Positions 66-58,421 of a stretch of DNA of 64,000 nt are shown in pieces. The stretch covers positions 5,520,001-5,584,000 of the forward strand of contig OZ249436.1 in NCBI GenBank assembly GCA_965235115.1, written 5' to 3'. A model generated the notes under the pieces. That model was not told where the DNA came from and made no database searches. It worked only from the letters and a program-made list of their open reading frames with translations. This stretch comes from Laetmonice hystrix. Taxonomy: Eukaryota. The position numbers and the translations under genes are program-made. How positions within the stretch are numbered: the stretch's first letter is position 1; each line of letters starts with the position of its first letter.

Positions 66-52303
<52,238 letters not shown>

Positions 52304-52845
52304 ACCTTCACGCTCAAAACGTTTGAACTGTGTAATTTCATTTCAAGTCATATTGTAATTTCTTGACATTTGCCACCATATTACAGTTTAAAGCTTCGCA
52401 GAAAATCGTTTCTGCTGAATAATTGAGGAGTCAGTAAAAAAAAGAAAATAGACTTTCAACGTATTATTTTATTATAGTTGGTACAAGGGTAGCCCAAAAT
52501 ATGATATTTTTTCTAAAAAATTATTTATTTTTCAATATAAACAGGCATTTAATAGTTTCCCTTGAAAATTTTATACTTTCCTACAATTCCAATAGATGGC
52601 GCAGCAGGAGGCTGAAGCTGCTGAGGGAGGGGCACAGTCGGAAGGAGCCTAAAGTATAGAACAGGGAGGTCCACTACTATATTATTGCCACACTTGAATA
52701 AACATGGAAAACAAAGTACAATTTAGTAATCTTGCTACCTAGGCCTACATGTAGAGCTTTGACAATACTGAGTGAGACATATCAACCAAGAAAAACTGAC
52801 TTTCTGACTTTCATCACCATCAATCATCTCCACCCGCCGTGATAT

Positions 52846-53518
52846 TGTTGTGAAAGTGCCTTGGGCCGAACCTAGCGCCACCTAGAGGGATGAGGCTCAC
52901 CTAGTCAGTATATCCTCATATCGCGCCCTCTGGCGGATCGTGTAAATCGACCGCCTCAGTTTGGCCCCAGAAGGGTAGAATCTATATAAGCCTGGGTTTC
53001 CCGCGATAACTAGAGAGTTGTTGCAAGTTTGTCGTCCTGTGAGGAGCCCCACGCGGTTACCTTACAGGCCGATATTGCAACCCTCGGCCTATGCCGCCAT
53101 AGCCCAGTGACCATTGGTCTACTGTGCTGGCCTAGTAGGCCCTCGCTAACCCAGAGCGTTTAACCGCCTCCATATACTCGGTCGCCCGGGCCACTGTCGG
53201 GTGACGACCGGTATTTGGTAGGCTTTATACCTGACGACCGCCCCTAGTCCTATCGGACTCCGTTTAGTGACTAGGGAAACACTGACCACGGACTACGACA
53301 TTGGTTACGGACCAAACACTTTGACCTACGGACTGACCCTCATATTGACCCCGGCAACAACCACGGACCATCCCTGTGATACGAAATATACCCACTCCAG
53401 TGGCAGGCCCGACATAGTCGACAAGCAGGCCGCTACGGTAAGTGTATTTCTATCGTGCCAGTGGAAAGCCCACGGCTATCCCAACCGTGCTGTAGTGACA
53501 CGGAGCAATTTCACTACA
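52846..53518 (+). repeat. 5' LTR
   Basis: TG...CA ends with an imperfect terminal inverted repeat; TATATAA at ~52983; matches 57495..58167 at a constant offset of 4649. Confidence 0.95.
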
Positions 53519-53520
53519 AT

Positions 53521-53533
53521 TGGTGTCAGAAGT
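53521..53533 (+). promoter_or_regulatory. Primer binding site complementary to the tRNA-Leu 3' end
   Basis: TGGTGTCAGAAGT starts 2 nt after the 5' LTR; it is complementary to ...ACTTCTGACACCA of tRNA-Leu(CAA/CAG), a common gypsy PBS. Confidence 0.85.
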
Positions 53534-55137
53534 AAAGTAACTGGCACGACAGTTATAAGTGAAACCACAGTTTCACTACAATTAGTGTCAGAAGTAAACT
53601 AACTGACACGGTAGTTGAAACCACAGTTTCACTACACGTAGTTGAAACCACGACACTCACTAATTGGTAGAGTCGACGGCACACTCCTACTACAGTAGTG
53701 AGTGAAAAACGTGCGTCATTGCCAGCGCTTAGATTTCCCGCGCAGAGCAGCACGCAGACGTTTGCCTGCACTCTAGATCTATTTGTGTTTACTCTTTCAC
53801 ATCTCCGTTTTCAGCATAGTCAATTGTTTGAAGCGGGGGGAGGTTGTGTAGAGTTTAACTTGTAGATTTGTCCAATTTGGTCAAAGTTGTGATTTGCACC
53901 AGTACACGTGCACCCATTCACACGCCACTCAGTACCTCTCGTGTGCGCGGTGAAGCGCGACGGTGGGCCAACTTGAGTGTTGACCGAGCTTATTGATTAG
54001 CCTAATATTGCTGAACTGTATTTTTGCTCGTACTGCGTATTTGTGCATCTATACTAGCTTCACATAATTACAGCGTAAGTTAAGCCTAACTTCGCAGTAA
54101 CTAGGGCTACTCACTAAAAGTGACAGAGGTGACGATTTGCATACGCATAGCGACTGATATGTGACTGGTGAGTGGTGCCACATATAGCCCCACTCTGCCA
54201 GACCACCGGTGCATTCGTTCCCTGCTATAGAATAGTGGTATAGGAGCATAAATTGTGCATTCTCTGAAGTAGACAGTAACGTTTTCTATTTAGTTTCGAT
54301 TCTGTATACTTGAATTCGTTACTTGTGCCATAATACAGGCTGTCAAACTTGAGTAACCACCTTGTGTTTACTTTGCATGACGACGGCCGCTACCGGAGAA
54401 AAGTACGACCACTAATCACCAGGTGGCGCCAGCTCGGGATACCCGTAGTACTACAAGCGCCATCTGATGTAAGAAAACGAACCACACTACCGCTCCACGT
54501 CGTATTGAACAAGACTAAGGTTGGAAAACAATTTCTACCAAACGGTACCTGTACTTTACGGACATTTACGAGCAATTCACTTGAAAGCCTAAGGTGTTTG
54601 CCTCTACTTACGACTATAACACTTGTTGTAGAGACATTCAGGGTGAGTAAGTGATAAAAGTGTTTGACAATATAAGGGTTTGACTGTATTACCTAGCATT
54701 GCTTATCTATTCAATTGTTACACAGAGATACTCGGTGTTGACTTTGAATTTACAGTCAATAAACTTAACCCTATTGTTGTCTCAGCTTACTATAAGCACT
54801 CCACTGTTTGAATTTTACTGAACTTCAGTGATTTTCTTGCAAATAACTTAGAAAGTTAGCAGTGCTTAACCTGATCAATTCAAGTACATGAACTAAATGT
54901 TACATTGTACTTAGATTAACTTATTGGATATAAGTTAATTAAAATATTTGACAAGTTCAAATTATACAAACTCGTACTTTCGAAATAAGTCGGAATATAG
55001 TACAAACTTTGTTATTCGAACTCAATACTTGTTCATTTATTCCTAAGTTCCAGTACATGAACTTAGTGATTCGGTAATTCCGATCTTGAATTAATAACAA
55101 GTAATTACCAAAACCTCTGAATACTTTAACTACTATA

Positions 55138-56829
55138 ATGCCTCCTAAAGCCCAAAGGAAAGTTATGGAAGAGGAGAGGGAGGAGGAGTTTTCATTCAGA
55201 GAGAGTTTTGGAGAACTCACATCTTACCTCCGTGAGTCAGACAAAAGGAGGGAGGAACGAGATATAGAAAGGGAGAGGCAGAGGGAGGAACGAGATATAG
55301 AGAGGGAAAGAAAAAGGCAGGAGCAAGCCCAATTCGAAATAGAAAGACAGAGGCATGTGGAGGCAGAGCGTGCCCTGCGAGAGGAGGAGCGCGCTCGAAT
55401 AGACCAGGAGGGTCGCGCAAGACTGGAAGCCAGTCAAAAACAAATGACTCAAGTATTGTACATGATGATGGAGAGGCTAGAAGCCCCCAGGCGGGAGGAG
55501 GAAGTGAAAGGTGCTGAGGCTTTGACTCCACCGCCACTTTCCCCACGCCATCCAGTACTTGTACCTCCAGTTATGCCAACCCTGTCTCCAGCTGGAGCGG
55601 TACCTAAGCATCCCACGGGGACGCAGCACCCTCCTACTATTGCTCCGCTCCCTCAGGAGCGACAGGCCCCGAACCCTCAGGAGCGATACGCTCAGCCTGT
55701 CCCCCTCTTAGCGATACCACATGTATCCACTTCCACCCCGAGTCTCCGTGAACGGGAAACAGAGAGGCAGCGACTCTTCAAGGAAGAGTACGCGGCAACT
55801 CTTGGGGTGATTGAGCGGCAGGCCCAGCAAGGGCCGCCCCGGGAGAGGATGAGCAATGCCAACCTCCGTGAACGGGATGCCACCACAGGTAGCATGGCTC
55901 AAAACACCATAGGTAGCAGAGCTACACAAATGGGGTATCCGTTGTCGAGGCCAAATATGGCTACATTCGAGGGTAATGAGGAGGAGAGCTGGGAAGCATT
56001 CATCTACCCCTTTGAACGAATGGCGAATCGTTATGGGTGGAATGAGGATGACCGGCTGGACCACCTTTACGAATGTCTTCGAGGAAAAGCCGCCCGCTTC
56101 GTGTTCTCATTGCCTGGAGATCACCGCGAAAGCTACGCCCTGTTGCGAGGAGAGCTCGATCTGAGATATGGTGAGACTGAACCAGCTGGGACTGTGCGGA
56201 TGAAGCTCGCGAGTTTTCGACAAGAATCCCGGTCCACTAAAGAGTACGCAGAAGACGTACAGCGGCTTGTTGCGCAGGCCTATCCTGGAATAGGCACTGC
56301 TACCCGCGAAGAACTAACAGTAGAACAGTTCTTGAAAGGGTACCGCAATAGCAACGTGGCCTGCCTGGTTCTAAACCATAAGCCAACGACCCTCACAGAG
56401 GCGAGACGGAAAGTCGATGAATTCGAGTATAATTTCCAGGTGACCCTTGGCCAGGAAGACCGCTCTCGATCAAAGTCGAGGCGCGTCAGTTGGCAGGACG
56501 AGGAAGCGCAGACCTCATGTGACGAAGAATCGTTAGAAATTCTCAAGAAGACTTGCAAGTCAGTCATGACTATGCATTCTGAGATAACTGGTGAGATCTC
56601 AGAGGTCTGTGCCCTAGTGAAAGACCTGACAAAGACTGTCAAGGAGCAAGGGATGGAAATAGCGGCATTAAAAGAACAGGTAAATGCCCAGAGTTGTGGG
56701 GATGCCCCCAACATCCGGCAAGCCTGCTATGCCACTCCCCCAAGCCCACAAAGGTCAATCAGCTCAGTTTGCCACAGCTGTGGACAAGTCGGACACCGAT
56801 CGAGTCCACAGTTGACGTCGGAAAACTGA
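55138..56829 (+). CDS. gag: Retrotransposon Gag protein (563 aa)
   Basis: E/R-rich coiled-coil N-terminus, Pro-rich linker, capsid-like segment FEGNEEESWEAFIYPFERMANRYGW...LRGKA...RQESRSTKEYAEDVQRLVAQAYP...EQFLKG, and a C-terminal knuckle remnant CHSCGQVGH. Confidence 0.9.
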   Translation: MPPKAQRKVMEEEREEEFSFRESFGELTSYLRESDKRREERDIERERQREERDIERERKRQEQAQFEIERQRHVEAERALREEERARIDQEGRARLEASQKQMTQVLYMMMERLEAPRREEEVKGAEALTPPPLSPRHPVLVPPVMPTLSPAGAVPKHPTGTQHPPTIAPLPQERQAPNPQERYAQPVPLLAIPHVSTSTPSLRERETERQRLFKEEYAATLGVIERQAQQGPPRERMSNANLRERDATTGSMAQNTIGSRATQMGYPLSRPNMATFEGNEEESWEAFIYPFERMANRYGWNEDDRLDHLYECLRGKAARFVFSLPGDHRESYALLRGELDLRYGETEPAGTVRMKLASFRQESRSTKEYAEDVQRLVAQAYPGIGTATREELTVEQFLKGYRNSNVACLVLNHKPTTLTEARRKVDEFEYNFQVTLGQEDRSRSKSRRVSWQDEEAQTSCDEESLEILKKTCKSVMTMHSEITGEISEVCALVKDLTKTVKEQGMEIAALKEQVNAQSCGDAPNIRQACYATPPSPQRSISSVCHSCGQVGHRSSPQLTSEN

Positions 56830-57482
56830 GCAGGGTCGAGTACACAGGCCACCACTCGACCCGGAGATCAGGCCAACATTACCCACCAATGAAAGTGCTG
56901 GGTATCGGTAACACTGTAACAGGTGTTACTACTAGACAAGGCATTGGTTGAAGGTGAGCAACCATTGGTTACATTCAGAGCATCTGTGAATAGTGAGAAT
57001 GCAGGTCAAACTAACTCAGTGCTTTGCCTGGTTTTCATGTCATCCAATATGACAAATGACAAAATGTCTTTAACCGGCAAGCAGCCTTAATTAACAACCA
57101 CATAACTATCTGTATCAGAATGAGTATGTGTAACTTTAAGGTCAGTATTACTGTTGATCTCTGACAGCATTCAGCCACAAAAGATGATTCACTTTTGCAC
57201 CCAACTTTAGGAGTACTGACTCGAATAGTCCTCGAAACAGTAACGTCTCGGGCTAAACGTTGCCAAACCTATACGATAGGCCAGTACTATGGCAATAGCT
57301 ATGCTTAGATGGTATCTGCCCTGAGATAACAACTAGTCGCACTATGTATCCACTCCTATTGTTTTCTGGATGTAGCAATTTCCAAATGACTGTTCCAGAC
57401 ACCCCGTTCAGTCAACAGGTAAGATGCCCCACTTTCACATCTGTGCATTTGCAAGGAAACATCGAAGAGACTCGATGGTGCT

Positions 57483-57491
57483 GGGAGGGGG
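57483..57491 (+). promoter_or_regulatory. Polypurine tract
   Basis: GGGAGGGGG just upstream of the 3' LTR, preceded by a small hairpin CATCGA-agagac-TCGATG. Confidence 0.8.
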
Positions 57492-57494
57492 TGT

Positions 57495-58167
57495 TGTTGT
57501 GAAAGTGCCTTGGGCCGAACCTAGCGCCACCTAGAGGGATGAGGCTCACCTAGTCAGTATATCCTCATATCGCGCCCTCTGGCGGATCGTGTAAATCGAC
57601 CGCCTCAGTTTGGCCCCAGAAGGGTAGAATCTATATAAGCCTGGGTTTCCCGCGATAACTAGAGAGTTGTTGCAAGTTTGTCGTCCTGTGAGGAGCCCCA
57701 CGCGGTTACCTTACAGGCCGATATTGCAACCCTCGGCCTATGCCGCCATAGCCCAGTGACCATTGGTCTACTGTGCTGGCCTAGTAGGCCCTCGCTAACC
57801 CAGAGCGTTTAACCGCCTCCATATACTCGGTCGCCCGGGCCACTGTCGGGTGACGACCGGTATTTGGTAGGCTTTATACCTGACGACCGCCCCTAGTCCT
57901 ATCGGACTCCGTTTAGTGACTAGGGAAACACTGACCACGGACTACGACATTGGTTACGGACCAAACACTTTGACCTACGGACTGACCCTCATATTGACCC
58001 CGGCAACAACCACGGACCATCCCTGTGATACGAAATATACCCACTCCAGTGGCAGGCCCGACATAGTCGACAAGCAGGCCGCTACGGTAAGTGTATTTCT
58101 ATCGTGCCAGTGGAAAGCCCACGGCTATCCCAACCGTGCTGTAGTGACACGGAGCAATTTCACTACA
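57495..58167 (+). repeat. 3' LTR
   Basis: Appears identical by eye to the 5' LTR; preceded by a polypurine tract and followed by the ATAT TSD. Confidence 0.95.
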
Positions 58168-58421
58168 ATATGACCCTGGGCCTGGCTGTTGCAAGGCCGC
58201 GTAAAATCCCAAATAAGCCTACCCACCCAACCAAACGACTTTCAAACCGTTTCCTCGGAAATTTATCTCCTCCACCCGAAATTATTTACATATATTTCCA
58301 AAAACGCCCCCTAACGTGGTCATTTTATCGGAAAGGATTTACTGTTCCGCCAGATGGCGCCATAGGACATCGCCATAAGAATTTTAATCGTTAACATCGC
58401 TGTCGACACTACGCAGGCAAA

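Follow-up and report, generated by a model that had tools for sequence, protein, structure and literature searches.

A recently inserted gag-only Ty3/Gypsy element in Laetmonice hystrix: a multi-copy family probably dependent on a gag-pol partner

Structure of the element and its cis signals

The window, the whole 64,000-nucleotide stretch of the Laetmonice hystrix genome that was analysed (contig OZ249436.1, 5,520,001 to 5,584,000), carries at positions 52846-58167 a gag-only LTR retrotransposon of 5322 bp, the features of which are collected in Table 1. Elsewhere in the window a rhodopsin-type GPCR in a single frame (12753-14159), an exon weakly matching SMG1 kinase (29871-30260, E=6e-4) and a DDE_Tnp_1_7 transposase fragment (42119-42694) lie on the minus strand, and minisatellites are numerous throughout.

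Table 1. Features of the gag-only element, in window coordinates
Feature	Position	Strand	Basis
5' TSD ATAT	52842-52845	+	
5' LTR, 673 bp, TG...CA	52846-53518	+	LTR alignment
TATA-like motif inside 5' LTR	52983	+	
PBS, 13 nt	53521-53533	+	complementary to 3' end of tRNA-Leu(CAG)
62-bp tandem unit (LTR end and PBS repeated)	53521-53595	+	
Family-specific 5' leader	53596-54779	+	identity among copies
Tract derived from family A: 3' end of leader and Gag codons 1 to ~180	54780-55694	+	identity to family A
gag ORF, 563 aa	55138-56829	+	ORF, Pfam and model
Pol-frame start remnant, pre-protease	56820-56877	+	74% to partner family A
Non-coding 3' region, found in the gag-only family alone	56878-57459	+	no pol homology detected
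Pre-PPT and PPT (PPT at 57483-57491)	57460-57494	+	common to family A
3' LTR, same as 5' LTR	57495-58167	+	alignment
3' TSD ATAT	58168-58171	+	

The two LTRs of one element share one sequence when it inserts. In the window copy they agree at 673/673 positions with 0 differences, which by the rule of three places their divergence below ~0.45%, and insertion of this copy is judged from the LTRs to be recent or very young. The preliminary description had listed apparently identical 673-bp LTRs, an intact 4-bp TSD, a PBS, a PPT and an uninterrupted 563-aa Gag, and each of these was recovered: ATAT stands at both ends, the PBS is of the tRNA-Leu type, and the PPT is followed by 3 nt and then the 3' LTR.

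The PBS, TGGTGTCAGAAGT, is complementary to host tRNA-Leu(CAG) genes at their 3' end, the CCA end being assumed to be added post-transcriptionally. The tRNA 3' pattern has 96 matches in tandem arrays (G000:C5:25913816-25985649, also C7 and C12). ARAGORN made no tRNA call at the first locus and did so at one of two further loci; two members of the C5 array are tRNA-Leu(CAG), and one C12 stretch yielded no call. Through the 62-bp unit, gag-only copies carry between one and five PBS-like motifs each. A canonical splice-donor motif lies at 53438, late in the LTR and upstream of the PBS, with an equivalent in the 3' LTR; it is retained in family A, the gag-pol family described below. As the 1.6-kb leader contains six ATGs ahead of gag, the RNA from which the ORF is translated may be a spliced one, or one that starts internally. 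An Rfam search gave a single hit, far under the cut-off (E=0.44), and no ribozyme.

The Gag protein

The 563-aa Gag runs without interruption and matches Pfam Retrotrans_gag (E=1.1e-5). It consists of a charged N-terminal region, a Pro-rich linker, a two-lobed capsid domain (CA, ~aa 285-440), a long helix and an incomplete zinc knuckle, which scores 16 bits against zf-CCHC (cut-off 20.8) and is missing its last Cys. The knuckle region (56790-56829) is shorter, in frame, than that of family A, and the older gag-only copy L020 is intermediate, indicating stepwise loss. A zinc knuckle normally binds RNA, and its loss here counts against the proposed preference of this Gag for the element's RNA.

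An AlphaFold model of residues 264-563 (pLDDT 83.5) matches the capsids of PNMA2, dArc and, more weakly, Ty3, at 15-20% identity, and the predicted fold is that of a general Ty3/Gypsy-type capsid. A Retrotrans_gag-type Gag with such a two-lobed fold places the element in Ty3/Gypsy. From the modelled fold and from the selection described below, the element would be expected to build its own capsid. A HMMER library search returned 4056 Gag relatives, the closest at 50% identity; among ten looked up, the two named proteins come from a limpet and a polychaete, and together with the GPCR and the SMG1-like exon they point to an invertebrate host, probably a lophotrochozoan. A word-indexed protein search with residues 260-563 yielded 0 of 1747 candidates.

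Absence of pol and the 3' region

Between the gag stop and the 3' LTR lie 665 bp, in the six frames of which no Pfam family is found at E<=10, while family A pol pieces in the same run match protease (PR), reverse transcriptase (RT), RNase H (RH) and integrase (IN). A 14-row profile of the protease region scores no better on this stretch than on shuffled sequence (215 of 300 shuffles as high), and tblastn of the family A pol pieces matched none of the gag-only loci among 30 loci searched. Pfam, the custom profile, tblastn and DNA alignment therefore agree in giving no PR, RT, RNase H or IN signal in the 3' stretch. What does match is a segment of ~58 nt across the end of gag, which aligns with the start of the family A pol frame (74%, E=3e-4; 14/25 aa at the protein level, E=0.52) and is a tiny pre-protease remnant of pol. 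The earlier statement that no protease, RT or integrase remnant is recognisable holds, and this short pol start is an addition to it.

Two candidates for further pol sequence were rejected. For a decayed protease, a DNA alignment collinear with the pol start reaches z=3.0, which falls to z=0.5 once the first 60 nt are removed, and HOXD70 scores are equalled by 160 of 200 shuffles. A local match to integrase in a reverse frame (score 47, z 4.4), one among 36 comparisons, lies on the wrong strand and has no counterpart in Pfam or tblastn; it was taken as chance.

In the sequencing runs, one contig of run X3 skips 1427 bases of the window (56026-57454), and an internally deleted derivative probably exists as DNA. 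No empty-site joint was seen among the matches listed from four runs, which stem from one sample, are not independent, were compared with a stretch having one flank, and give depths that are not copy numbers.

The gag-only family across the genome

The genome searched comprises 627 Mb in 35 contigs. The family-specific 3' region is present at 15 loci with different flanks, unbroken at 12 of them (16/16 candidates scored), and at least six near-full solo LTRs accompany them (40 scored of 91 candidates). LTR pairs could be compared in 11 copies and differ at 0-11 sites. Wherever both ends are readable (7/7 copies), matching 4-bp TSDs of ATAT, ATAC or GTAT are found; the 5' flanks depart from these in two copies whose 3' ends are damaged. 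In the 5' leader, identity among the copies is 97-99.5%, against 72-73% to family A (measured over 53900-54750). The preliminary description had proposed that the element transposed in its pol-less form, and this is what the shared 3' region, different flanks and matched TSDs establish: a multi-copy gag-only family has multiplied without pol. As in Quinta-type elements of wheat, the LTRs, PBS, PPT and TSD are intact, no PR, RT, RH or IN coding is present, and there are several independent insertions.

These same loci dispose of the single-copy explanation that had been named as a refutation, in which pol was deleted once from this copy after insertion. The trace of the pol start is what such a deletion could leave behind, yet the presence of one and the same pol-less 3' region at 15 differently flanked loci refutes it, and it is almost certainly wrong.

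Gag is open (545-569 aa) in 7/14 copies examined and broken in the other 7/14, the copy at C4:38.63 Mb being excluded from this count. Gag is broken in one copy whose LTRs are identical (674/674). A one-base frame change close to codon 489 (window-equivalent ~56602) is common to three copies and a fourth reaches the same frame, so that in these four (L010, L011, L018, L013) the Gag tail continues into what was once the pol frame. Copy C1c (L018) has another sequence with an LTR-like start inserted in its 3' region (~3140, reverse strand). Among metagenome loci, 0 of 214 pattern matches were confirmed as gag-only relatives.

Candidate gag-pol partner families

Family A encodes a Gag with a full CCHC knuckle, a pol whose domains run PR-RT-RH-IN, and additional 3' frames; the Ty3/Gypsy pol order is therefore seen on this homologous family, the gag-only element having no pol of its own. 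The two families have in common 13 nt at the start of the LTR and ~56 nt at its end, the PBS, the pre-PPT/PPT (88% over 49 nt, LTR start included) and a similar target, copy A_C4 being flanked by the TSD ATAA. The autonomous-type Gypsy partner that had been postulated from the window alone is thereby located, and the sharing of LTR termini, PBS and PPT is again as in the Quinta type.

A census of the leader (25/25 candidates scored) gave four young and two older copies of family A, plus one fragmentary copy. Gag and pol are both open in 0/4 young copies in this assembly: one has an open gag and a pol split over three frames, another has a pol frame of 1374 aa and an interrupted gag, and in the remaining two gag is damaged. 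After the integrase, family A has overlapping open frames of 373 and 234 aa before the 3' LTR (L031:3053-4194). They have no Pfam hit, and the clusters nearest to them in the atlas are unnamed or C2H2-like, recognition being under the tool threshold.

The damage to all young A copies in this assembly gives some room to a second explanation, that the family is as described and is helped at present by the more distant gag-pol family C, alone or jointly with A. In RT, family C and A are 82% identical. C copies exist in which gag (571 aa) and pol (1422 aa) are open, and the family shares with the gag-only one the LTR's initial 14-15 nt, the PBS and a 5' flank of ATAT. In the one 5-kb piece of one C copy that was compared, however, the shared 56-nt U5 end and any exchanged tract are lacking, and gag DNA identity across the capsid region is 65%. 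The exchange with A, in contrast, is recent (99-100% identity, see below), and a role for C as the present helper is considered unlikely. Three family C units stand in tandem with 10-kb spacing (G000:C10:20498089-20522627).

Recombination with family A

In the window copy and three sisters a tract of 0.7-0.9 kb is 98.8-100% identical to A_C4, whereas outside it these copies are 73-76% identical to A (5' leader 73%, CA 75%). A tract at 99-100% amid 73-76% elsewhere implies that the two families recombine. At positions that distinguish four other gag-only copies from three A copies, the window copy follows its own family to 54779, is A-like at 35/35 sites over 55006-55668 and returns to its family from 55695, so the breaks fall between 54779 and 55006 on the left and between 55668 and 55695 on the right. 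An 18-bp in-frame deletion at ~55668 distinguishes the window copy from its three nearest sisters (563 vs 569 aa) and adjoins the right edge of the tract.

The direction of transfer can be read from an older A copy, which is 92-96% identical to young A in every segment and groups with A and the four tract copies (100/99, 99/99); the tract allele is therefore native to A and flowed from A into the gag-only family. Finer nesting of the tract copies inside A is weak (93/98 and 92/83, and 23/0 in the narrowest tract tree). For the other gag-only copies, identity to A in the tract region is 75-95%, yet they agree with one another at 97-99.5% in the 5' leader, which suggests earlier captures from A. 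Taken together, identity to A forms a ladder in this one region only, with steps at ~75-83%, 82-90%, 90-95% and 99-100%.

Of 12 gag-only copies checked, 11 have the 62-bp LTR-end/PBS unit, as does 1/4 young A copies, a reverse exchange from the gag-only family to A. Sequence exchange between the two families has thus run both ways. Template switching in shared particles is an established route to such mosaics (PMC11302176). Ectopic gene conversion between genomic copies could also be the source of the tract.

Selection on gag

Between the gag-only family and A, the CA region shows dN/dS of 0.10-0.12 at a dS of 1.2-1.5. Within the family, changes in codons 270-563 were divided into those shared by at least two copies and those private to one. 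Shared changes number 11 synonymous to 2 non-synonymous in a set of nine copies (binomial p ~1e-5) and 29 to 30 in a set of 13 (p<=5e-4), against an expected synonymous share of 22-28%; these variants are few and not independent. Private changes (24 synonymous, 59 non-synonymous, 2 stops) fit neutrality, although the nine-copy private class is slightly synonymous-rich (15/39, p 0.02-0.10), partly through changes on the window-subfamily branch. Shared and private classes differ with Fisher p of 0.009 and 0.014. The dN/dS comparison that the preliminary description had called for therefore returns purifying selection between copies. With shared changes constrained and private ones neutral, gag is constrained during replication and left to decay after insertion, a pattern that points to transposon-level selection on gag and not to host co-option.

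This bears directly on the suggestion that the locus is a stage toward capsid domestication of the Arc, PNMA or PEG10 kind. Mammalian Arc is without a zinc knuckle, and both the knuckle loss and the resemblance of the fold to PNMA2 and dArc would suit such a course; the likeness, however, is found at 13-20% identity and is a general property of Ty3/Gypsy capsids. A domesticated gene is a single fixed locus with decayed LTRs and constraint after insertion. This locus is brand new, keeps both LTRs, identical to each other, and is one of 15; selection is seen on the copied variants, private changes behave as neutral ones, and gag is broken in half of the copies examined (7/14). Domestication by the host in progress here is accordingly very improbable, and that part of the earlier interpretation is not supported.

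A different objection is that Gag is a mere passenger, the element being wholly trans-mobilised and the synonymous bias coming from pieces of autonomous donors absent from the assembly. Copies with broken gag and near-identical LTRs fit this, as do the common C-terminal frame change and the proven capture from A. The bias is nevertheless present in the CA and C-terminus, which are just 75% identical to A; no pol-linked CA was found at 76%-87% identity (150 scored of 323 candidates); and gag has stayed open despite a CA synonymous divergence from A of dS ~1.3. A passenger Gag is therefore held to be improbable. The broken gag beside identical LTRs, the shared C-terminal frame change and the stepwise loss of the knuckle do indicate that Gag in cis helps without being obligatory and that its extreme C-terminus is dispensable; an intact Gag of its own does not seem strictly required.

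Proposed mechanism

The reading favoured here, and a likely one, is that the window holds a recent insertion of a multi-copy, semi-autonomous gag-only Ty3/Gypsy family that depends on an A-type gag-pol partner. Long ago a gag-pol element would have lost pol just after its start. RNA would now be transcribed from the 5' LTR and Gag translated from it, and this Gag would favour the packing of its own RNA in particles that also hold family A Gag-Pol. The RT of family A would prime on host tRNA-Leu and its integrase would insert the cDNA at RTAY sites, and a template switch by RT between co-packaged RNAs would yield the A-derived tract.

A bolder version, put forward tentatively and rather doubtful as it stands, is that the family is a helper-tracking symbiont that supplies capsid: judging by the ladder of identity to A, selection would have fixed, time and again, segments taken from the helper (its leader end and Gag N-terminus) so that co-assembly with its Gag-Pol stayed possible, while the knuckle was discarded and RNA capture left to the helper Gag or another mechanism. 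If true, it would amount to a division of labour in mixed capsids within an animal Gypsy pair.

Comparison with known systems

The closest described counterpart is RLG_Quinta of wheat, a Gypsy element with a Gag and no RT or IN that derives from the autonomous RLG_Cereba (PMC11302176). Quinta likewise shares LTR termini, PBS and PPT with its autonomous relative, and carries divergent gag variants in a conserved scaffold, which the account ascribes to recombination (PMC11302176). It differs in having an extra DUF1 domain and in being a centromeric, high-copy plant element; its gag exchange is described as taking place between Quinta lineages (PMC11302176), while the Laetmonice hystrix tract comes from the autonomous partner.

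The TR-GAG elements of Coffea and other plants resemble the present family in their LTRs, Leu-tRNA PBS, PPT, gag-only content and presence in at least two copies (PMC4350172). They were selected at a length of <=4 kb, which the 5322-bp element exceeds while agreeing in gag-only similarity and in having at least two copies (Chaparro 2015); in TR-GAG1 the Gag is Copia-type (UBN2) and bears a zinc finger, and the TSD is 5 bp long (PMC4350172). The Laetmonice hystrix element, by comparison, is 5.3 kb long and Gypsy-type, with a 4-bp TSD, a lost knuckle and an animal host. Among other plant systems, non-autonomous Athila elements are Gypsy elements with intact ORFs, purifying selection and inter-family recombination (PMC2410132). 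Sabrina and WHAM are also non-autonomous Gypsy elements with intact ORFs, although Sabrina_SA and WHAM retain protease (PMC9744471); Gag-protease forms are described from wheat and beet (PMC9744471, PMC13570524).

No animal Gypsy gag-only family was found in the literature covered, largely freely available papers, which is weak evidence that none has been described. Mammalian MaLR elements carry a gag-derived single ORF. They are pol-less animal LTR elements that rely on a relative, being MERV-L-related, and differ in belonging to a class III retroviral lineage with very high copy number (PMC6466679). The nearer animal parallel is zebrafish BHIKHARI, of which Bik-1 and Bik-2 are young LTR families with gag and without pol, with few full-gag copies and no intact helper in the reference; they are, by contrast, endogenous retroviruses and not Ty3/Gypsy, and have demonstrated host functions (PMC12067270). 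These fish elements show that gag-only elements are not confined to plants.

The layout is therefore known from plants and fish, and what may be new here is a gag-only family among animal Gypsy elements, with a partner that can be traced, a Gag N-terminus captured from it and the knuckle gone. Element, helper family, recombination tract and selection signal come together in one animal genome, and show how a lone gag can stay intact without pol or a zinc knuckle for the benefit of the element. This is a caution against calling such gag ORFs co-opted, and they are a possible raw state for Arc-like genes. It also makes testable whether dependent elements must match the Gag N-terminus of their helper, in an animal pair comparable to Quinta and Cereba in wheat.
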